Source of the DNA: a virus
Taxonomy: Duplodnaviria > Caudoviricetes
IMG/VR virus record: IMGVR_UViG_3300037249_000709
Location: 64,001 to 128,000 of that record
Length of the DNA: 64,000 bases
Strand: one strand, 5' to 3'
Position 1 is the stretch's first letter; every line of letters begins with the position of its first letter. The notes beneath the pieces were generated by a model that saw only the letters and a list, made by a program, of their open reading frames with translations, ran no database searches and was not told the origin of the DNA. The translations under genes were made by a program, and so were the position numbers. Below are positions 5,864 through 50,127 of the stretch, piece by piece.

Positions 5864-5958
5864 AATGGAATACCTCCGATATTTAGTATTTGCAGTTACG
5901 GGCTTGTGACCGTCAACGGCTGCATTACCGGCAGCGGATTCGCCGCCGTCACTCTGCA

Positions 5959-37667: not shown

Positions 37668-39563
37668 ATGGCACAAGATTTTAGAGCGTCTATACTTGCG
37701 CAGTTAGATACAAGTAACATTCAAAAGGATATAGATGCTATTGGCAAAAGGAATATAAAGTTTAATGATATATCTTTTGATACAACGCAACTTGTAAATT
37801 CTATTCAGGCGGCATTAAGCAACCATAGATTCAATGTAAATCTTGGGAATGTAAATATAAATTCCCAAAGTTTCAATCAGCAAGCTCAAAGTATGGGAAG
37901 CGGCGCAGGACAAAACTTTACGAGCGGCTTTAATAGAGCAATTCAAGGAATCAATCTATCCAACTCTATAAACGAGATTAACAGGGTAAAAGATATATTA
38001 AAAAGTTACAAGTTTGATACAAGTTCAATTACTGCTGTAACAAAAAGCCTTGAAACAATGAGATTGCAAATTGATAGTGTTAAGACTTCTATTTCTTCTG
38101 GAAGCAACGGTAGCAATATTCGGCTAACAATTCAAGGCACTGACGAAATGAAGCGGGCGGTACAGGTTGTCAGAGAATTGAAAGCAGGGGAAATGGATGT
38201 TGTTGAGGTTTCAAGAACATTTACACAAAATTTTGCGCAACAAGAGAGACAGGCGCAAAAGAACGCCGCCGCAATAACTCAATATATCTCCAAACTCAAT
38301 GAATTAAGGACAAGTGCTACAGACCCCAATTCTGCGAGGTCTATCAGCGCCGATTCTCTACAATCAGCTTATGATGGTGTGATTTCTAAAATACGTCAAT
38401 TACAAAATGCAAATTCAGAATCCGCTATTGTAATAAAGGCTGAAATAGATGCGGAAATATCCAAATTCAAATCTTTAATTTCGGTTTTGCAAGAAGCCAA
38501 TTATTCTGCAAACCAAATGCGTACAAAATCCGTAGAAGTAATAAAAAGCGAAGAATTAAACAAATTAAGTGCATTTGAAGCGGAAATTAGAAAAAGTGGA
38601 ATTGCCTTTTCTTCATTCAAAACAGATGTAAGTGGATTAAGAGATATTCTAAACGGGGTAACTAATTCTTCTCAGTTAGAATCTTATTTAAACACACTTT
38701 CTGTTGCCAAAAGCGAATTTAAGGCATTAAAGCAAGAAGCTGCCCAATATGCAAGTGCGGCAGATGTCTCCATTCTTAAAAGCAAAATGGAGGCTTGGCT
38801 TACTAAAAACACAAAAGCCGCAAAAACTTATGGTGCAGCCATTAAAGGACTTATCTCCGAATTAGACTCTATGGCTGCAAAGGGCGGAGTTTTAGCCACT
38901 GAGAACAAACGCATTGCAAGTAGCTTTAAACAAATTGATGCCGCTGCCGGAGCTGCTGGACTTAAAGGAAGAACATTTTTTCAATCAGTCGGAAAAGCTG
39001 CTCAAAGTCTTGGGAGATACTTTGGAGTATCAACGCTTATTTATCGCTCGATTGCGACATTAAGACAAGGAATTAACGATGTCATTGATTTGGACACGGC
39101 GTTGGTGGACTTGCAGAAAACGGCAAAAGCTACGAGCGAGGAATTGTCAAATTTTTATTATGATGCTAATGAGCAAGCAAAGGAATTTGGAGTAACAACA
39201 AAAGAAATTATTCAGAGTGCAGCGGACTGGTCACGTCTTGGTTACTCTTTGAATGATTCTAAAACAATGGCGCAAGTTTCATCTATATTCAAATCTATTT
39301 CTCCTGGAATGGATATTGATACAGCAACAAATGGACTTGTTAGTACAATGAAGGCTTATGGTATAGAAGCGAACGATGCGCTTGATGGAATTGCAAGTAA
39401 AATTAACGCAATAGGTAATAGTCAAGCGTTAAGTAACAATGATATTGTTGATTTCCTAACAAGGTCATCATCGGCTATGGCAGAAGCAAATAACTCATTG
39501 GAACAAACTATTGCAATAGGTACGGCTGCAACAGAAATAACTCAGGACGCAGCAAGTGTCGGT
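37668..39563 (+). CDS. tape measure protein, exon 1
   Basis: LDTALVDLQKT and ADWSRLGYS TMP motifs; ends ...ASVG at the 5' splice site. Confidence 0.9.
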
Positions 39564-40871
39564 AAGTAGCGTTGCCGACAATAAAAATAGCTATATCGGT
39601 TAAAATCCTGCGGAGGGCAAGACCGAGGAAAGACTTTTTTAGATGTTTATTTATAAAATTCGGAATAAGGGAAGTGAAATATGAAGAAAAATAGAGTGAT
39701 ATGTAATTGCGATAATTGCGGAAAAGAGATAAGTAAAAAGAAAAGTGAATACGAAAAATCAAAACATCATTTTTGTAGTGTAGAATGTCATTCAAAATGG
39801 CAGGATAAAAAACTGATGGTTGAGTGCGAAAACTGCGGTAAATCAGTTATACAAACATTCACTCAGTATAATAGAGCAAATCATCATTATTGTAGTAATA
39901 AATGTCAACGAGAATTTCAACACAAACAGAAAACCGAAAAAAGAGTATGTGAAATATGTGGAGTGGAGTTTGAGGTTAGCAAACTTTCTAAGCAAAAACT
40001 ATGTTCAGTAGATTGCCAGCACGAATGGCAAAAACTACAAATCGGGGAATTAAGTCCACATTACAATAGAGAAACCGTAAAATGTGAATATTGTAATAAG
40101 GAATATGCAGTGCCACAACACAAAATAAAAAATGGGCAACATTTATTGTGTTCTGTGGAATGCAAACGAAAATGGTATTCAGAGGTGTGGTCGCAAGACG
40201 AAGATTGGAAAAAAGAGTCCAGACTTAGAGCAGTCAGAATATTACAAGATGGATTGATTAACACAAACACTAAACCACAAAGAGATGTGAATGCTATATT
40301 AGATAATTTAAATATACCATATATTAATGAAAGTTCATTTAAATATTACGCCGTTGATAACTATTTGCCTAACCAAAATTTAATAATTGAAGTAATGGGA
40401 GATTATTGGCACGGAAACCCCTAAGATTCGGTTATAATTATAATGAAATACAGGCTAAAAGAATACGGCAAGACAAAGCTAAACACACCTATATTAAAAA
40501 ATATTATGATATTGAAATTTTATATCTTTGGGAAAAGGATATAAATGACAATCCAGTTCTATGTGAAAAGATTATTAAAGAATACATAGATAATCACGGT
40601 ATATTAAACAATTATCAATCTTTTAATTATCGTATTGAAAATAATGAATTGAAGCTAAATACAGATTTAGTTAAAGCATATTTTGAACAATAACATCTAA
40701 AAAGAATCCGTAGAGACTGTAATACTCACTATGGCAACATAACGAGTTCCGCTATTGACAGAAGATACAGTCCGAACTGCAACTATAACCTAAATGAAAT
40801 TGCAGAGTTAGCCAGAAATGACTAACCGCCGCTTATGCGGTCAGTACCGAAAGGGAAAGTAACAGATATTG
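39564..40871 (+). mobile_element. group I intron 1 in TMP, endonuclease ORF in L6a
   Basis: P1 TGTCGGT/GCCGACA with U-G; P10 AGCGTT/AACGCT; P7 GACTGT (40715-40720)/ACAGTC (40767-40772); J8/7 GAAGATA; terminal G 40871; in-frame G|N junction. Confidence 0.9.
39681..40693 (+). pseudogene. intron-encoded Zn-repeat plus Vsr/DUF559-like endonuclease split by a -1 frameshift
   Basis: CxxC...FCS repeats; IEVMGDYWHGNP* then QDKAK and ILYLWE in the -1 frame. Confidence 0.75.
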
Positions 40872-41445
40872 AACGCTTTAAAAACAATAAGTATGCGCAT
40901 CCGCGGCTATGACGAGGAAACTTCGGAGTACATAGGTGATGTCGAAGTCCTAAGCGGTAAAATCGCAAATGTTACAAAAACAGCGTCAAGTCCAGGTGGT
41001 ATCTCACTATTTACAGATGCAAGTAAAACCGAATATAAATCGACTTATGATTTATTAAAAGATATATCCGAGATATATGATGAACTTACGGACAAGCAGC
41101 AAGCAGAACTTCTTGAATTACTTGCAGGCAAGAGACAAGGAAATGTAATTGCGTCAATTTTAAATAACTTTGAAGCCGCAGAAAACTCAATGACAACAAT
41201 GGCTCAAAGTGCTGGTTCTGCAATGAACGAAATGGGCATCATTGAAGAATCGCTTGAATACAAACTTAATGCCCTAAAAGAAACAGGCGTTGGTGTGTTC
41301 CAGAATCTCTTTGATAGAGGCGATTTAGGAGCAGCCATCGAATTATTAACAGGCGTATTAGCCGCCATCGACAAAATAACCGAAAGTCTTGGTCTATTCG
41401 GTACGACCATAGCAACTATCGGAATTGTCAAATTCATTAAGAACT
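40872..41445 (+). CDS. tape measure protein, exon 2
   Basis: NALKTISMRIRG, KSTYDLLKDIS and LAGKRQGN TMP motifs. Confidence 0.9.
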
Positions 41446-42027
41446 TCGATTAACTCATCAGGGTTACATTATACACTTCCCAGAGTGTTTAATTGGTCTA
41501 TTATGGGGGAGAAATTGTCATAATGGCGACAACATTCAATTCCATAAGAAGTAAAGTTCTAAAACTAAGCAAAAGGAGAAATTGCCTGAACCTATAATGC
41601 TCACTACACCATATATTGGTAGCCGAAAAACAAGGCAAATAAGTCAAACCGATGCACACGGGAGTGAGATTTCTACGGCTAAAAAATAATGCCGGACAGA
41701 TATATAATTAGGAACTGGCAGCGAACCTACCACCGTTTAGGAGTACAGATAATCCGATAGGGTCAAAAGTTGCGCAAGCAATGTCGGGATAAGGGTCTAA
41801 CTGGTAGGAACGTTCAGAGAGCATTATTCCTTGCAGTGAATAAAAGCCATATTTTATTCGCTGTTAATGTATGTTCCAAAGTGCAAAAATAAATTCACCG
41901 TCGAAACGTTTAGCTTTGTTGTATAAGTTGGTGTGGAGGTGCTGGAAAGGTTTGTAGTGACCCCGTTTACAACTATGTCTTTAAGATATAAAACTACAAT
42001 CACAATAATGCTAATGGAGGGAAAATT

Positions 42028-42207
42028 ATGAACGATAATAAAGAAATTAAAGATAATAAAGAGTCCTTAAATAAGGTCGTAGACTTGATATGTGGGTATA
42101 TTACAAAGAACACCGATGAAACAAAGGACTATAACCGTTTTGTCGAGGATATGAAAAATGACGAGAAATTTCAAGAGATAATTAAAGAGATGACAGAACA
42201 CATATAA
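42028..42207 (+). CDS. 59-aa intron cargo protein (not in ORF track)
   Basis: GGAGG RBS; MNDNKEIKDNKESLNKVVDLICGYITKNTDETKDYNRFVEDMKNDEKFQEIIKEMTEHI. Confidence 0.6.
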   Translation: MNDNKEIKDNKESLNKVVDLICGYITKNTDETKDYNRFVEDMKNDEKFQEIIKEMTEHI

Positions 42208-42234
42208 AAAAGCTGTAGCCACGCGACTACAGCC
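42206..42234 (-). terminator. intrinsic terminator of the antisense cargo cassette
   Basis: 10-bp stem that pairs fully only on the minus strand (G-U pairs), then TTTTT. Confidence 0.75.
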
Positions 42235-42261
42235 TTATGATTTGAAATAGAAGGGATATAT

Positions 42262-42450
42262 ATGGATAACAAATACCATGCACAAGTGTACATCAAAATT
42301 TTAGACAAATGGGAAGAATATATTGCCAAACTAAAAGAAGAAAAAGGCGATAGCGATATTTCTCTTGAAAAAGCTATGGATTATGAAATCGAATTTGGAG
42401 TAATCCCGTTTGGTTGGCGACTTATGAATCATAGAGATGACATTGAGTAA
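42262..42450 (+). CDS. 62-aa intron cargo protein
   Basis: ORF with AAGGGA RBS. Confidence 0.55.
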   Translation: MDNKYHAQVYIKILDKWEEYIAKLKEEKGDSDISLEKAMDYEIEFGVIPFGWRLMNHRDDIE

Positions 42451-42466
42451 TTATAAGATTCTATTT

Positions 42467-42934
42467 TTAGCGAAACCTTTTTACGCACCTCTCAAAAATT
42501 AAAATTGTTTCTTCGATAGTTGCATTTGAGCCAAAGCCAGCAATAGATGCGGCATTAACACCCAATTTATTTGTAAAAGTGTTTACTAAACGCCAGCCTT
42601 CCTGTCCGCGTCTTTTTAACTCGTAACATAAAGTGGCAGTATCTATTTCTCCAGTGGGTTTATCACGAATAACGACAACATCATATTCGTAAAGGTCATT
42701 TATTTCAAGTTTTTTCGCAAGAGATGAGTCTTGTGCTAATTGGAAATTTCTATGAATGTTCTCTCTTTGTCTGTTATCAATACTTTGTTGTTCTAATCTT
42801 GTTGTTCTTTGTTGTTCGCGACGTTTGATTGTAGCAGGAGATATAACCTTTCTGTAGTTATAGTCATAATTACAATTAAAGCAAACATCTGCATTGTCGC
42901 CAATCCACTCGTTGCAATTCGGACATCTTTTCAT
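42467..42934 (-). CDS. zinc-ribbon plus DUF4177-like intron cargo protein, antisense to TMP
   Basis: CPNC..CFNC; YEYDVV...GQEGWRLV...LIFER; GGGTGGTGA RBS. Confidence 0.8.
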   Translation of the reverse strand: MKRCPNCNEWIGDNADVCFNCNYDYNYRKVISPATIKRREQQRTTRLEQQSIDNRQRENIHRNFQLAQDSSLAKKLEINDLYEYDVVVIRDKPTGEIDTATLCYELKRRGQEGWRLVNTFTNKLGVNAASIAGFGSNATIEETILIFERCVKRFR

Positions 42935-42956
42935 ACTATCACCACCCTTTTATACT

Positions 42957-42985
42957 ATTTTAATATATTTAAGCATTTATGTCAA
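42957..42985 (-). promoter_or_regulatory. sigma-A promoter inside the 3' end of intron 2
   Basis: TTGACA-17bp-TAAAAT. Confidence 0.8.
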
Positions 42986-43000
42986 TATGATTCCTCCTTG

Positions 43001-46000
43001 TTGATTTGCAATTAAAAACTCTGGGACTTCAAGGTGCAAACAGTATTGACATAGTAAGAATTGCTACCCAAAATATGTCAAACGCAGATTTTGCGGCAGC
43101 ATTATCGACTACTGCTCTAACAGAAGCAGAAAGGTTACAGCTTATAGCCGGACGGCAGCTCACAGATGCAGAGTTAGAAAAAGCACTGGCAACCAATACA
43201 TCGAGTGCTGCAAATGTTGGAGCTACCGTAACCACATTTAGCTTGGCAGGAGCATTTAATAGTTTAAAGACAGCTATTAAGGGCGTGGGTATTGCAATGA
43301 TGAGCAACCCTATAACTGCCATTATCACAGTTGCTCTTACAGCTATTACCGTTATTTCGCGAGTAAAAGCCCATATAGATAACGTTGCCACTGAAATTAA
43401 AGAAAAATCTGAGGAAGCAGCAAACTCAATACAAGAAGTTAGCGATGCATTTCAAAAAACGACAGAAACTGTGGATAACATTGGAAAAAGATTTGCAGAA
43501 TTAGCACAAGGAGTAGATTCGCTAACTGGAAAGAATATTTCTTTAACCACAGATGAATATTCTGAATTTTTGAATTTAAGTAATCAGTTGGCAGAATTAT
43601 TTCCTTCCTTAACAAGACATTATGACGAGAATGGAAATGCCATTGTAAATTTAAGTGGAGATGTAGACACTATTGTTGGTAGTCTAAAGAATCTTGTAGA
43701 TGTTCAACGCCAGGTTGCCAACCAAAATATTGCCGAGCAACTTCCCGATTTGTACGCAGGAACTATCCAAAAATCAAGAGAATATCAAGCTGATGCAAAA
43801 ATGTATCAAGATGAAATTCAGGGTACACTTTCCGCATGGGAAGGGATAAATGGTGGATTTATCAATGGAAATATGCTAACAGTTCGTGCGCCTGTTGATA
43901 CATTGGAAGAGCTTGAAAAAGTTGAGCAAATATATCTATCTGTATTAGATGATTTAGGTATTGCCTATCAATATGCAGACAACTTAGATGGTATAAGATA
44001 TAAAATCAATTCCTTTAGTAATATGAGTGCAAGTGAAATTTCAAATATGACTTCTCAAATTGAGAGTAGCGTAAAAGAGGCTTTACTTGCCGATACATCG
44101 TTAAATAAATATTTTGATGATTCATATAGGGATATTGAAAAATATAGTGGTCTTGTTGAGTCGAGCATTAATAAGAACAAATCGAATTGGGCAGGTTTAA
44201 CGCAAGCGCTCACGTCTTGGTTGTCTACTGATACCACCTATCAGGCATTAAGCGATGAAATGCAGTCCATTGTTCAGATGATGGTAAACAATGTGGATTT
44301 TGCTGAACTCGACTTTGATACTTGGGAAGAAGCGTCGCAGTATATTATAGATAGCATCATTGTTCCAATTTCTGAGGCTTCTGACGAAGTGCAGCAAGCG
44401 TATATCGACTTATTTAGTTTAGACTCCAATCTTTCTTATTCTACATATATGGCAAATGCGCAAAAGGCAATCAGTGCCATTGCAAGTGGTTTAGGAAAAT
44501 CTTATGAAGAAATCGCCAAAGCAGTAGGATATGATAATACCCTTGATGATTTGCAAAAGAAAAGGGATAAAGTTTTAAATAGCTTATTTTCATACGGCGA
44601 AATTCGTTGGGGTGGCGGAGCAAATAAAGCAAACTCGCTTTCCGCTGCGCAAATCAACCAAGCATATAGTTATATCACTAATTACGGTGTTAAAACTTGG
44701 AAAGAACTCCAATCCGCTTTTGCTAATAATACTTATGGGCAGCTTATAGACCTTGAATCCGAAACGGAAAGTTTAAAGAACTTTAATACGGCAATTAGCG
44801 AGTCGGCATCTGCAACTGGTATGAGCGCAGATTCTCTAACTAATTTAAGCGAAAGATATAAAGACGTAGAAGGTCACGAAGCTGCTTTATCTAATCTTTA
44901 CACTAAAACTTCAACAGGCATTCGTGTTAATGTTAAGTCCGCTCGTGAGCTTGAAAAAGCATATAATAGTCAGAAGAAAGAACAGCAAATCAAGCAAATA
45001 GATTCCTTGAAAAAGAAATACAAGGAATTAACGGACGAAATGCGAGGAACGACCGATGCAACGAAATATGCTGAGTTGTATAATCAACGGGCAAACATTG
45101 CTGCTCAAATAGATGATGCTACAAGATTAGCCTCACAATACCAAGCATTAGCCTCTTATTATAATGCTTGGCAAGCGGCAATGAGTTCAAGCAATCCCAG
45201 TGACCCATATAGCAACATTCAGTCTGGTTATGATAAAATTGGGGAACTAATCGAGCAAGGCTGGGCATACAAAGATGAGGTTGACACTTATTTAGACCTA
45301 TTACTAAATCCAGACGTTCGCACAAATGATAATGTGGCGGATTATGATAAGTTGGGAGAAAAAATAGGTAATACAAATTTTTCAATCAAAGATTTCTTTG
45401 TTACAGATGACGATGGAAATCTGGTGTCTGATGGAGTATTCAATTTTCTTGATGCTATCAAGGAAGGATTAGGAGAGGATTATGTAAAAATTCTTTCTGA
45501 TGGAACATATTGGTGGGATTTAACTGGTGACAAAGCAGAAGCTGTTGCGAAGTATTTAGGTGTATCAACTGAGTTTGTTGATTGGATGCAACAAGCATTA
45601 AAAGATATAACCGGGGACTTTACCGAAGAATCAATGTTCGGTGATTTAGTTATTGATGCGAAAGATGCGGAGGAAGCTCTGTCGGGTCTTTTAACAAAAA
45701 TAGATGATTCCAAAAACAAATATAATCTGGGTAATATTTATTTAAACTCCAATAATTTAAAAGATGTTAATCAGTATATTGAAAATATCGGAAACCTTAT
45801 AAAGGACAACTTTTTAGGAAAAGATGGCAAAATCGACATCTCGGTAAATGGTGCAGAAGAAGCTACCATTGTTTTAACGGCACTAATTCAGCAAAAAGCC
45901 GAATTGACTGCTCCTGCTATAATGTCTATTGATACAGAGGCATTAGACTCCACGGACGTACAGCTTGCAAATGCTATCGAGTTATTACAACAATTTATTA

Positions 46001-49000
46001 CTTTGTCTGTACAATTAGAAACACAAAAATCGCTCGGTTTAGATACCACTAATACACAAACACAGTTGGTTAATGTGTCTAATACTCTTAATGGTCTACC
46101 CAAAGAGATAAAAACAAAAATAGGTATTGATGGAGAAGATGTTTCTAAATCTATTACAAATATTGCCAACACTAATGTGACTGCCGGGGTTAAACTAAAA
46201 GACGGAGATATTGATACCGTAAAGAAAACCATCGCAGGAATTGACCCAAAGACCATTGAATTGCTTACCAACTCCGATGATACGATAGATGACCTTAATG
46301 AGGTCGAGAAATTCACGATTCACGACAAGCCGTTTAAGGTAAAGATGAGCGGTTATTCTGCCGCAATGGGAAATATGCGTAATCTGGATTCATTCCAATT
46401 TGATACCAAAGTTATTACTATTAGAACAGAATATATTGATGGTGACATAGATGGTTCTGGCAGAGCGCAAGGCACAGCTCATGCAAGAGGAACAGCATTT
46501 GTGTGGGGGTCTGCATATCAAAGTGGAGATTGGGGAGTCAAGAAAGATGAAGTTGCGTTGGCATCTGAGGTCGGCACTGAAATAGTTGTACGAGATGGTC
46601 ATTTCTTTACAATCGGAGAAAATGGTGCAGAGTTCTTCCATTTCAAGAAGAACGATATTGTATTTAACGCTGAACAGTCAAGACAACTTTTGGAGAATGG
46701 TAAAATAACAAATGGCAAAAAGCGTGGAGTGGTATATGCAAACGGCACAGCCTATGCAAACGGAACTCCATATGCAAGTGGTGGCGGCAGCACTGGAACA
46801 GCCAGCAGACGAAGAACTACTATTGAACAACAAGTCGAAGAAGCTACGGCAGAGGAAGTTTCAAATGTCATTCCAGATGTAGATGATTATAATGCCGATG
46901 ATAGCTTTAAATACATAGACCGCGTAGAGATTTTACTTGACAGAATACACCGAAAAATCGACGCCGTTAAGGATGCAATTAGTGACGTATTTAGTTTGTG
47001 GAGTGATAGAGGTGACAATATCACAAAACAAATTGGAAATATAACCGATGAAATTGGAACACAAGAAGCCGCAGCAAAACGATACCTTGAAGAAGCTCGC
47101 AAACAAATTGACAAATACGGATTAGACCCTGACTGGGTAAAGTCTATAGAAGAAGGCAATATTGGTTTTATTTATTTAACCAACCTTGATGAATTACACG
47201 AGGGCTACGAGGAATACAAGAAATGGTACGAAAAGTATCTCGATGCTCGTGACACGATTCAAGGGTTAAACAATGACTTATCTCAACTTTACAAAGATGA
47301 GTTTGATAATATAAAGAGTAATTATGATAATCAAATTGACCTCAATGAATATTTGCAAGATTCAAACGAAAAAACATATACTCAAAGCACAACTTACTTT
47401 GATGATATGCGCAATATTTATCAAGGGAATTTAGGTTTACTAACAAAGGAAGCGCAAGAACTCGAAGCTCAACTACAAAAAGCAGTAAATGAAGGTAAAA
47501 TCGAGGAAGGCTCGGAAGCATGGCAAGAAATGCGGAAAGACATCAATGATGTCAAAAAGGAAATAGCTTCAACTAATGTAGAACTTGCCAAGTTGTATAC
47601 AGAGCAATTTGAATATATTGAAAATAATTATAAAAACCAGATAGACTCTTATCAGAGTCTTAACGATGCCAACGAAAAGAATTTTACCGCAACCACTAAT
47701 TACTACAAAGAAATGCGGGAAATATCGAAGAAAACATTGACAGCACAAGAGGATGAGCTTGCCGAGCTTGAAGATGAATTTGCTAAAGCTATGGATTCCG
47801 GCAGAATAGAGGAAGGCTCAGAAGCATGGTACAAAATGCGCAGTGCTATTGATGATACTAAGCGAAGCATTGCCGCAACCCGTGTAGAACAAAAGCAGCT
47901 ATACCTGGATGAGTTCAACTATATGCAAGACAACTATAAAAATCAGTTGTCGCTATATGAGCATACCGCAAATATGTATAGTAAACGAGCGACTTCTATG
48001 GAAACACGTGGCTATGTAACAAGCAGTACGCTTTTAAACAAGCAAGCCGAATTACAGCAAAAGAATTATTCGCTTTTGAGAGAAGAACTTATTTCCTTGG
48101 AGGACGAATATGCAAGAATAATGGCAACTGGCGAAATTGAGAAATATAGTGCAAAATGGTATGAACTAACCAATAGTATCAATGCCGTTAAAGAAGCTAT
48201 GTACGATTCGAGAATAGAAGCCGAAAAACTCTTTAAGGCTATGGAGCAAGTTGACGAAGATAAATTTGCTTTGCAGCAAAGTATGATTTCGCAACAGCAG
48301 GATGAGAGCGACTTCTTTATAAATCTAATGAGCTTTACCGATTTGCACAACAAAAAAGGAACGCTCACAGATGCCGGGCTTGCAACGCTTGGACTTCACA
48401 ATTACAATGTTGATGTTAATAGCACGCTAAAAAGGGGTTATGATGAAGAAATTGCTCGTGTTGACGAACGGTATAGACTTGACCCATATAATATAGATTA
48501 TTTGAAGTACAGACAAGAGCTGGTTCAAAATCGTCGCGAGGCTGTTATCGCCATTGAGAACGAAGAAAAAGCAATGATTTCTCTTGCTGAAAATGGCATT
48601 AAATTGGAACTCAACAAATTAAAAGAGCTTATTCAAACATACAAAGATGGTATAGACCAAGCAAAAGACTTGTATGACTATTCCAATCAGATTTCCGACA
48701 AGACGAAGAAAATTACCGACTTGCAGAAACAAATTTCTGCTTATGCTGGCGATACCTCAGAGGAAACAAAAGCCATCGTTCAAAAGTTGCAGGTGGACAT
48801 AACCGATGCACAAAAAGACCTTAACGATACAGAATATAGTCGTATGGTGACAGACCAAAAGAAGCTATTAGATAGCCTTTATGACGAATATGAAGCGTTT
48901 TTAAATAGTAGGCTTGATGATAGAAACGCACTTCTTAATGACTTGAAAAATTCTGTTAATAGTGTCCCTGGTGCAATCCACGAATCTCTCACCGAAGTGG

Positions 49001-50127
49001 CTAATGCGGTTGGCGTTCCGCTTTCAGATGGTATGAAAAACACTTGGGAACAAGCGGCAAAAAACATTGAAGCGTGGAACGCAACTCACGTAGCAGACCA
49101 ACAAATAACTGAGCAAGCACTATTAGATACCTCTAATTCGTGGGCGACTTTTGGAGAAGGACTGAACACTCGTCAGGACTTCTTGAATACGCAAGAGGGC
49201 GAAATTGTACTTGCTACAAATAATACCACCCAAGGTATCAACAAGGTGTGGGGCGACATTGGCGTAGCCGGCGGTCAAACGCTCGTAGAAAAAGCCGATG
49301 AAGATTATGTAAAAATGCGCGGTGATATGACCAATGACAAAAACGATATTGTTGGAGATATTACTACGGGTATAACCAATGGTGTGTCCGATATTGATGG
49401 GAATGATAGCAATATAAATTCTAATCTAAGCACGGCAAATGATACTTTAAAGGATATTAAAGATTTTGTTGAGAAGATACAAGAACGTGCAGAAGAAGCA
49501 GCTACTCCTTATATGGGAGATGTTAATTTGGATGATAATGTTGACTCTGCCGATGCATTAAAGGTGTTGAGAGGCGCTGTTGCTCTGGAGAGATTAACGG
49601 AGAGTGAAAAAGCTCTTGCAGATGTTAATGGTGATGGTCAGATTGATAGCGCAGATTCACTAATGATATTAAGGATGGGTATTGGACTTGAAGATAAAGT
49701 CAAGGTAAAAGCGTTTAGTACGGGTGGACTAAATGATACCCCAGGATTAGCAATGCTTCACGGAACGAAAGAAAAACCCGAACTTGTTTTAAATGCTAAC
49801 GACACAAAGAATTTTATCAATTTCAACGATACATTACGCGAGATGGAAAGAAGTCAAACACTTGATTTTATGAGTGGTTATGCGGGCATCGAAGCACCAC
49901 CGCTTCAATTAATAAAGTTGCCATCTTTTGCATCGGGTATGAGTAGTCCAACAATGAGTCAAGATGTTAGCATTACTAATAACTTTGCGATTGAGCGTGT
50001 GCTTGATTATAATGATATAGTTAATAAAATGCGAAACGATAAAAAGTTTGGAAAAGTAATACAAGATATGAATATGAGTCAATTAGGTTATGGTAGCGAT
50101 ATGAGCAAAAATAAATATAGGTGGTAA
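43001..50127 (+). CDS. tape measure protein, exon 3 (spliced product 3198 aa)
   Basis: long helical repeats (IEEGSEAW), no RBS before TTG 43006, C-terminal dockerin. Confidence 0.9.
49516..49689 (+). other. type I dockerin-like domain within TMP
   Basis: duplicated Ca-binding loops GDVNLDDNVDSADAL and ADVNGDGQIDSADSL. Confidence 0.85.

Follow-up and report, generated by a model that had tools for sequence, protein, structure and literature searches.

In the intron of the phage T4 nrdD (sunY) gene the open reading frame (ORF) lies 3′ of the ribozyme core and encodes a homing endonuclease on the sense strand, and phage morons are autonomous promoter-gene-terminator units located between late genes. 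The tape measure protein (TMP) genes of Bacillus cereus-group prophages hold several self-splicing group I introns at defined sites; these are of subgroups IA1/IA2, canonical enough for standard models, and have either no ORF or a (partial) endonuclease gene (Tourasse and Kolsto 2008, PMC2504315). In IStrons such as CdISt1 and BcISt1 the ribozyme lies 5′ and the cargo 3′ (Tourasse et al. 2014, PMC4227781), and in nuclear ribosomal DNA (rDNA) group I introns homing endonuclease genes occur in antisense orientation (PMC9548176, PMC3679873). Here we describe an interruption of a phage TMP gene in a 64,000-nt stretch of viral DNA (IMG/VR record IMGVR_UViG_3300037249_000709, positions 64,001 to 128,000), which we call the window and whose first letter is position 1. 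An initial annotation, made from the letters of the window, had proposed a group I intron whose core lies 5′ and whose 3′ splice site follows only after ∼1.1 kb of cargo. Our comparison of related loci supports this outline, and we think it probable that 41451-43008 is a group I-type self-splicing intron in phase 0 of the TMP gene, belonging to a divergent family missed by standard models.

The TMP open frames (37668-39569, 40869-41453 and 43006-50127) correspond to consecutive stretches of PHROG 4211, and because the three map end to end on one profile we treat the TMP as one gene with two interruptions, the second of which, intron 2, is the subject of this work. For comparison, 17 related viral loci were retrieved with the middle TMP piece, and pattern scans of viral, metagenome and genome collections added members (numbered below with the prefix L). 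The gene is laid out as follows.

37668..39563, plus strand: TMP exon 1, 632 codons, PHROG 4211 positions 552-771; contiguous with exon 2 in most of the 17 related viral loci.
39564..40871, plus strand: intron 1, a canonical-looking group I intron carrying a Zn-finger/HNH-type ORF, frameshifted here.
40872..41450, plus strand: TMP exon 2, 193 codons, PHROG 4211 positions 772-942.
41451..43008, plus strand: intron 2, 1558 nt, predicted phase 0; opens with an in-frame UAA, last base G43008.
43009..50127, plus strand: TMP exon 3, 2372 codons and stop, PHROG 4211 positions 960-1630; its first 8 nt, CAAUUAAA, take part in P10.

Each exon has a whole number of codons, and the spliced TMP would comprise 3197 amino acids (aa). 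The predicted 5′ splice site of intron 2 follows U41450 and the predicted terminal G is G43008. Conserved in all loci are an exon 2 ending in ...AAGAACUUCG(A/G)U, an intron segment ...NNNNUUG-GUC-UA immediately 5′ of P2, and a G directly before the C(A/G)A of exon 3. Two short segments of the intron appear to recognise the exons.

41488..41498, plus strand: internal guide sequence; UUUAAUUG (41488-95) pairs with exon 3 (P10) and GUC (41496-98) pairs with exon GAU (P1).
41554..41559, plus strand: AAGUUC in the joining segment J2/3, complementary to exon GAACUU (41441-46), a pairing predicted by RNAalifold.

At the 5′ splice site P1 contains a U41450-G41496 wobble that is U-G in 17/17 sequences, adjoined by A-U/G-U and G-C as GUC pairs with exon G(A/G)U, and the 5′ exon ends in U in every locus. 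The terminal G is kept in 16/16 loci having a 3′ end. P10, which in the window is CAAUUAAA/UUUAAUUG (CAAUUAA/UUAAUUG), shows 3-8 contiguous in-register pairs in 14 loci, as opposed to 0-3 in shifted controls, and takes compensatory forms elsewhere (CGAU/GUCG in L001, CAAC/GUUG in L027, CAAAU/RUUUG in L022 and L023). A P10 adjoining P1 is the canonical group I arrangement. Splicing at these sites would join the exons as ...AAC UUC GAU|CAA UUA AAA... (KNFD|QLK), GAU ending at 41450 and CAA starting at 43009, and the spacing is equal in L012, where exons 2 and 3 are uninterrupted and read KNFGELKLLG. The guide candidates GCCGAA (41622-27) and GUCGAA (41891-96) were dropped, being part of a covarying hairpin or not conserved.

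The initial annotation had drawn the same in-frame TMP fusion at another position: a 5′ splice after U41445 (P1 AACU/GGUU with U41445-G41462), a terminal G at 43000 reached through a P10 of ATCAG/TTGAT, the junction ...AAGAACU|UUGAUUUG... and the product ...KNFDLQLK.... These pairings exist in the window alone, and the fusion they give is in frame. Against them, the GGGUUA strand is taken up in a hairpin with the opening bases of the intron itself, and this hairpin shows covariation across the 17 sequences (AACUC/GGGUU here, ACUCC/GGAGU and GCCC/GGGC in relatives), the P1 register fails in 15/17 relatives compared at the window's offset, relatives have neither TTGAT nor a conserved G at the place equivalent to 43000, and the junction adds one residue relative to intron-less L012. 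The fusion thus stands and its position moves; we consider the U41445/G43000 version very improbable.

The exon side of the 5′ junction is itself unusual. The last 10 nt of exon 2, GAACUUCGAU, are nucleotide-fixed in all intron-bearing loci, and the codons AAG AAC UUC GRU are retained wherever the intron is present, including alleles with a strongly diverged TMP, whereas intron-less L012 encodes KNFG by other codons, AAA AAU UUU GGA (AAAAAUUUUGGA). Because the codons are fixed with the intron and synonymous alternatives appear without it, the exon end is probably under constraint at the RNA level. P1 accounts for only 3 nt of this fixed end; exon GAACUU and J2/3 AAGUUC are invariant on both sides save one uncompensated mismatch in L022, and it is possible that they form an extra exon-binding pairing.

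The first ∼430 nt of intron 2 are a conserved RNA observed at the same TMP site in >25 other phage/prophage loci. In seven loci the first ∼440 nt of the window insertion are 77-80% identical to same-site insertions, the remainder being dissimilar. An nhmmer profile of the core, which served for member search, recorded 36 full or near-full core copies and 2 fragments among the stored loci, some copies being duplicate fetches of one contig; of the 21 loci returned by a gapped metagenome pattern, 9 were chance matches (L030, L031, L034, L037, L038, L040, L042, L043, L047), as were several of the genome_contigs pattern matches. All full core copies with readable flanks sit at the same TMP site, and the profile detected none at a different TMP position or in the rest of the source phage, in whose genome a DNA search likewise found the core in single copy. 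A blastn search of 50,697 phage records with 41400-43060 returned no match. In L021-L023 the flanking TMP has 30-38% amino-acid identity to the window, yet the core RNA has 76-80% nucleotide identity; since core identity is high between TMPs of low identity, we read the intron as a horizontally moving element, and the family looks mobile rather than 'domesticated', as the initial annotation had put it. One member (L065, NZ_FMUV01000001.1) lies in a prophage of a cultured rumen isolate, Ruminococcus sp. YE282, with core coordinates and scores identical to those of L013.

The structured part of the conserved RNA spans 41451-41879. A structure consisting of the RNAalifold prediction plus the P1, P3 and P7 pairings was tested on 17 distinct sequences, across which 98.1% of cells pair. 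Double-sided changes were observed at 41 pairs, compared with 2-11 when partners are slid by 1-3 columns, and 0/500 shuffles reach the observed value.

Such strong structural selection on the core bears on the idea that the phage is defective and intron 2 a decaying insertion that no longer splices. Two observations speak for this idea: the endonuclease ORF of intron 1 is frameshifted in this record, and in L062:2750-3340 an IS30-like transposase gene lies within the intron core, leaving P7-P8-P7′, the antisense gene and exon 3 in what is probably a dead copy. The source phage is a 167-kb rumen phage infecting Clostridia (Ruminococcus-type hosts), whose record (166,766 bp) has a CheckV completeness of 100%. 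Window DNA is near-identical to contigs in bovine gut metagenomes from several studies, and several rumen data sets, independent of one another, contain the same arrangement at 88-100% identity. Together with the selection on the core this argues against decay, to which we give very little credence.

The helices of the conserved RNA follow one another as P1, P2, P3, J3/4 (AAAU), P4-P5 with extensions, P6 with extensions, J6/7, P7, P3′, P8, J8/7 and P7′, with P3 crossing P7 in a pseudoknot and P6 beginning directly after P4′. The core helices P3-P8 are thus in canonical order and are 92-100% paired in the 17 sequences, many of them covarying.

41451-56/41461-66 and 41473-77/41484-88, plus strand: two small hairpins in the P1 loop; in the first, 4/6 pairs are doubly changed, and the second was read from aligned sequences.
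41501..41547, plus strand: P2 with an internal hairpin, from the covariation alignment.
41573..41879, plus strand: putative catalytic core, with P3, J3/4, P4-P5, P6, J6/7, P7, P3′, P8 and J8/7 in the alignment.
41573-78/41827-32, plus strand: P3, paired in 17/17.
41583-88/41715-20, plus strand: P4, fitting the alignment of 17 homologues.
41726-32/41802-08, plus strand: P6-type stem CCUACCA/UGGUAGG, fitting the alignment.
41819-23/41872-76, plus strand: P7 GAGCA/UGUUC, with 41817, bulged A41818 and 41877; paired in 17/17.
41833-45/41852-64, plus strand: P8, 13 bp, fitting the alignment.
41865-71, plus strand: J8/7 UAAUGUA, fitting the alignment.

P3, P4, the P6-type stem, P7, P8 and J8/7 had all been named in the initial annotation, and each is compatible with every one of the 17 sequences; we also agree that P7 is a covaried, doubly changed form of GACUA/UAGUC. 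The P7 variants GAGCA, GGACA and GAACA all pair with an invariant UGUUC, a local hairpin competing with P7 is disrupted in three lineages, and with ≥10 sequences RNAalifold predicts P7 enclosing P8 unaided. In P3 a G-U becomes A-U in 4 sequences with the pair retained. G41817-C41877, the bulged A41818 and G41819-C41876 are invariant, which is compatible with a G-binding pair, invariance not being proof of one. Set beside the RF00028 consensus by eye, with no statistical test, P/Q/R/S-like motifs are recognisable: AAAUUGCCUGAAC resembles AAUUGCGGGAAA, AACUGGCAGCGAACC resembles AAUCCGCAGCCAA, GUUCAGAGAGCAUUA resembles GUUCAAAGACUA and UAAUGUAUGUUCC resembles AAGAUAUAGUC.

A number of observations weigh against a group I intron of the self-splicing kind at this site. 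The initial annotation had looked to covariance models of group I introns, and Rfam including RF00028 left the core unmatched at gathering score or E≤10 with queries of 471 or 120 nt; RF00028 was likewise unmatched by the intron 2 family in the whole phage genome record and 15 relatives. The same search did pick up, at L036:263-643 (minus strand, 74.7 bits), a canonical group I intron that lies further down the TMP strand. P3 and P7 are 100% paired, but their changes fall on one side only, with no double compensatory change. On its exon side P1 has just 3 bp, and neither the pair of P1-loop hairpins nor the exon-J2/3 pairing is typical of group I. For the cargo of the window we could define neither a P9.0 nor a closing stem that is conserved, RNAduplex finding no stem looping it out that is shared by the window, L054 and L055. 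Finally, none of the sequencing runs recorded as RNA contains the stretch. As the topology and motifs fit but the Rfam models do not match, we call intron 2 a divergent group I-type intron, and place it outside membership of the curated models on this comparative evidence.

The silence of Rfam would also fit a reading in which nothing is spliced here: the TMP would be made as separate polypeptides, and the 430-nt RNA would have some other role, for instance as a remnant, a leader or a regulatory RNA. So would the codon position directly ahead of exon 3, which is AUG in most loci and UUG in the window, L054 and L055. However, L036 reads UAG|CAA, an in-frame stop with no start codon before exon 3, and no Shine-Dalgarno motif precedes exon 3 in 11 loci, which bears out the claim of the initial annotation that the downstream TMP ORF has no ribosome-binding site. 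The stop in L036 and the missing Shine-Dalgarno make independent translation of exon 3 unlikely. Relatives, moreover, have this tail-length ruler interrupted at differing sites, which fits poorly with a protein made in pieces, and a guide sequence that pairs both exon ends with covariation, in an RNA with the topology and motifs of group I, speaks against such a scheme too. We regard separate translation as quite improbable.

Past P7′ the window's putative intron continues with an A-rich stretch, a variable region and then the cargo, the span from core to 3′ splice site being ∼1.1 kb. The initial annotation had counted three small genes here; the first is upheld, the second is doubtful, and the third proves to lie on the minus strand with a promoter and terminator of its own, called, as are all promoters and terminators below, from consensus matches alone.

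42028..42207, plus strand: ORF a, a conserved small gene of 59 aa with a GGAGGG ribosome-binding site.
42209..42236, minus strand: predicted intrinsic terminator of the antisense unit, a 12-bp stem and T run.
42262..42450, plus strand: ORF b, 62 aa, inside the 3′ untranslated part of the predicted antisense transcript.
42467..42934, minus strand: antisense cargo gene, 155 aa, with an N-terminal zinc ribbon, a long helix and a C-terminal DUF4177 domain.
42957..42985, minus strand: predicted sigma-70-type promoter of the antisense gene, TTGACA-17-TAAAAT, 11/12 consensus matches.

ORF a has 10 homologues (66-97% identity), each of them lying in a locus of this type, and in contigs of run X5 it carries an in-frame 9-nt insertion after 42045. 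It has no family match, a ZorA match at E 0.0014 being too weak to count. ORF b also has no family match, is frameshifted by a 1-nt deletion in L054 (93% identical) and shows no clear excess of third-position substitutions, and is doubtful as a gene on these grounds. In the antisense gene substitutions relative to L054 are mostly at third codon positions, its product matches Pfam PF13783 (DUF4177) at 29.8 bits, and it has 22 homologues, the 2 with surroundings being read also antisense between TMP halves. Its AF2 model (pLDDT 78) gave nothing at E≤0.001 in a Foldseek search of the PDB. The -35 box of the promoter lies 23 nt from the 3′ splice site and is oriented into the intron, and the terminator motif is 93.5% identical in L075 and L076. 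The antisense transcript should start near 42950 and stop near 42209, and being bounded there it is predicted to spare the ribozyme and the splice sites. Identity between the window and L054 is ∼99% in 41880-42220 and ∼88-90% in 42223-42720, the drop falling at the terminator hairpin, which suggests that this hairpin is a recombination boundary between cargo modules.

In Pfam, PHROGs and further family searches none of the window's cargo proteins matched a nuclease or transposase family, in line with the initial annotation, or a defence family. LAGLIDADG, GIY-YIG, HNH, His-Cys, PD-(D/E)xK and EDxHD nucleases gave no family match in the intron 2 cargo, and no cargo ORF matched an IS200/IS605 or IS607 transposase or TnpB (Pfam, PHROGs).

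Across relatives the core and insertion site are unchanged and the cargo varies, as the initial annotation had anticipated, in at least 5 configurations, 2 of them with toxin-antitoxin or defence-like genes. The commonest comprises 14 complete introns of 826-986 nt with the core and a single antisense gene of 98-137 aa, all of one family (CPxCG...CxxCG...CPYCxSxNxKKIS...QWHCNxCKSDF, hereafter KSDF-type). In these introns a predicted minus-strand promoter stands near the 3′ splice site (10-12/12 score in 10/13), an A-run and hairpin after P7′ read as the terminator of the antisense gene, and a long-range stem with one compensatory change brackets the gene. L055 has only the core (86% identical), the terminator and a DUF4177-type antisense gene, and the window and L054 add the ORF a/ORF b module to this set. 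In L075 the DUF4177 gene and this same terminator are accompanied by ORF a, a 107-aa gene and a 211-aa gene whose product matches PADLOC PD-T4-9_A (E 2e-9). The core of L076 is smaller and divergent, with R/S-type motifs like those of the others; its cargo consists of ORF a, a protein with a Panacea antitoxin domain (36 bits, the cut-off being 25.7) and a partner of 142 aa, together with the terminator already described and a pair of KSDF-like antisense genes. The proposal that the cargo consists of morons has support from relatives, where defence or toxin-antitoxin-type genes do occur.

The proposal that genes are swapped freely fares less well, as the commonest state is one conserved antisense zinc-ribbon gene that possibly belongs to the intron's own biology. 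The slot adjoining the 3′ splice site is always filled by an antisense zinc-ribbon gene in complete members, among which no ORF-less copy was found, and for this reason the gene may serve the intron itself, as a mobility, maintenance or splicing factor of a new kind with only the forward genes as passengers. The single protein family of the KSDF-type introns (ending QWHCNxCKSDF and common to 12 relatives), the long-range stem around its gene and the spread of the intron between very divergent TMP genes without a recognisable endonuclease speak for such a role. So does L070:1156-1640, where the core's 3′ third and a KSDF-type antisense gene with its promoter stand together outside a TMP gene; this fragment adjoins a gene that, judged by eye, resembles a P-loop nucleoside triphosphatase of conjugative coupling type, on a contig binned as Methanobrevibacter, probably wrongly. 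On the other side, the slot is occupied by two unrelated protein families, KSDF-type and DUF4177-type, and neither has nuclease motifs or, in AF2 models of both, a nuclease fold match; the KSDF model resembles just Rpb9/TFIIS-type zinc ribbons, with nothing at E≤0.001 (Foldseek against the PDB). The KSDF family, moreover, has 618 members, all unnamed; some of these form tandem arrays in a TMP gap whose RNA is a different one, and at least one copy lies in surroundings other than a TMP gene. An antisense gene working for the intron is thus a possibility we take seriously and yet consider unlikely. In a more distant phage (L048:1873-4776) the gap between TMP halves holds up to five opposite-strand zinc-ribbon genes, whose count differs between contigs, and the RNA there is unlike the intron 2 core.

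Returning to the self-splicing intron, late transcription would pass through the entire element and the 5′ 430 nt would fold as a ribozyme, in which the short P1 (exon GAU with GUC 41496-98, U41450-G41496 wobble) would define the 5′ splice site, perhaps assisted in this choice by exon GAACUU pairing with AAGUUC 41554-59. After guanosine attack the guide bases UUUAAUUG would bind the opening 8 nt of exon 3, this P10 bringing G43008 to the G-site, and the exons would be joined. The predicted junction is ...UUCGAU|CAAUUAAAA... in the window phage, with AAGAACUUCGAU as the longer upstream side, and ...AAGAACUUCGGU|CAAUUAAAAC... in the YE282 prophage. Removal of introns 1 and 2 would yield the single TMP. 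The ∼1.1 kb separating the core from the 3′ splice site would be looped out as a gene carrier holding a small forward gene and a self-contained antisense unit (promoter 42985, zinc-ribbon/DUF4177 gene, terminator 42209-36), whose terminator would end transcription just short of the ribozyme and which could be expressed apart from late transcription, for example in a lysogen. Catalysis, its exact chemistry, and the timing and role of cargo expression are what we infer here.

A broader reading is more speculative still, and we hold it to be rather unlikely: that a mobile intron family specific to one site in the giant TMPs of gut and rumen Clostridia phages is a portable gene carrier, with a fixed ribozyme, a fixed antisense anchor gene that is perhaps an unrecognised mobility or maintenance factor, and a loop exchanging toxin-antitoxin and anti-phage modules at no cost. 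What makes the locus of interest is an essential structural gene with a putative self-splicing intron that carries genes predicted to be transcribed independently, those of relatives including Panacea antitoxin-domain and PD-T4-9_A-like genes; if true, this would be a new place for lysogeny-expressed or defence-related phage genes and a new route for them between unrelated phages. Two-part recognition of the 5′ exon (a 3-bp P1 plus a 6-bp exon-J2/3 helix), if true, would be new for group I introns. A whole phage intron family escapes the standard RNA libraries, and because these miss it giant TMP genes are annotated as fragments, which distorts metagenome inferences on tail length and gene content.

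Intron 1, read directly from the sequence, has a P1 of GUCGGU(39558-63)/GCCGAC(39574-79) and a P10 of AGCGUU(39568-73)/AACGCU(40872-77), also shows R/S motifs, and has no Rfam match either. Its ORF matches PHROG 1271 HNH endonuclease and is split by the frameshift into 39681-40424 and 40406-40693; an extra C after 40417 in contigs of runs X4 and X5 restores a single ORF. Relatives are interrupted at further TMP sites by insertions of 0.4-1.9 kb, in L014-L017, L028, L039 and L046 within TMP piece 2 near residue 82-95 and in L012 at several sites in piece 1, for which reason we regard this TMP family as a hot spot for intervening sequences. At or adjoining the intron 2 site itself L007, L008, L010 (about 6574 onward) and L011 (about 6577 onward) have unrelated insertions, the sequence in L011 differing after ...AACUUCGGU, and different elements appear to share this one site. 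Among the DNA contigs aligned to the stretch there was no clean intron-less joint at the intron 2 site. Elsewhere, L075:1997-3760 in the TMP C-terminal part has a weak precomputed Dockerin_1 match, and window 5898-5958 (minus strand) is a full-length type-P5 twister ribozyme (Rfam RF02684, 58.5 bits, gathering 37.6).

How, then, does intron 2 compare with the systems described so far? As in the B. cereus-group TMP genes, there are several introns in one TMP, one site is usable by different introns, the exon bases beside the site are conserved and spread is by phages; in contrast to those introns, intron 2 lacks a P7.1/P7.2 insert and is missed by Rfam, and its family always has an antisense gene with a predicted promoter of its own and no endonuclease signature. 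With IStrons it shares a complete, here putative, 5′ ribozyme, a large coding insert ahead of a far-off 3′ splice site and an insertion into genes that would do them no harm. Unlike them it has no IS200/IS605 or IS607 transposase and no TnpB match in the insert and carries accessory genes, partly on the opposite strand; where IStrons have many T-rich targets, it keeps to one homing-type site in one gene. The T4 nrdD (sunY) intron likewise has a core contiguous at its 5′ side and an ORF looped out in the P9 region, whereas the gene that intron 2 has beside its 3′ splice site runs antisense and does not encode a known endonuclease. Nuclear rDNA introns also place a protein gene opposite the ribozyme strand within a group I intron, but these are eukaryotic His-Cys box genes in rRNA genes, while intron 2 sits in a phage protein-coding gene and has a bacterial-type unit (predicted sigma-70 promoter and intrinsic terminator) with a non-endonuclease product. 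Like morons, finally, the cargo would form self-contained units within the late structural region, the 11/12 promoter and 12-bp terminator bracketing the antisense gene here and likewise in relatives (as consensus matches only), and the cargo of relatives includes toxin-antitoxin or defence-like genes; unlike morons, which lie between genes, it would lie inside an essential gene and be removed at the RNA level by the intron. The combination of a phage structural gene, a divergent core, an obligatory non-endonuclease antisense unit and exchangeable forward modules is new.

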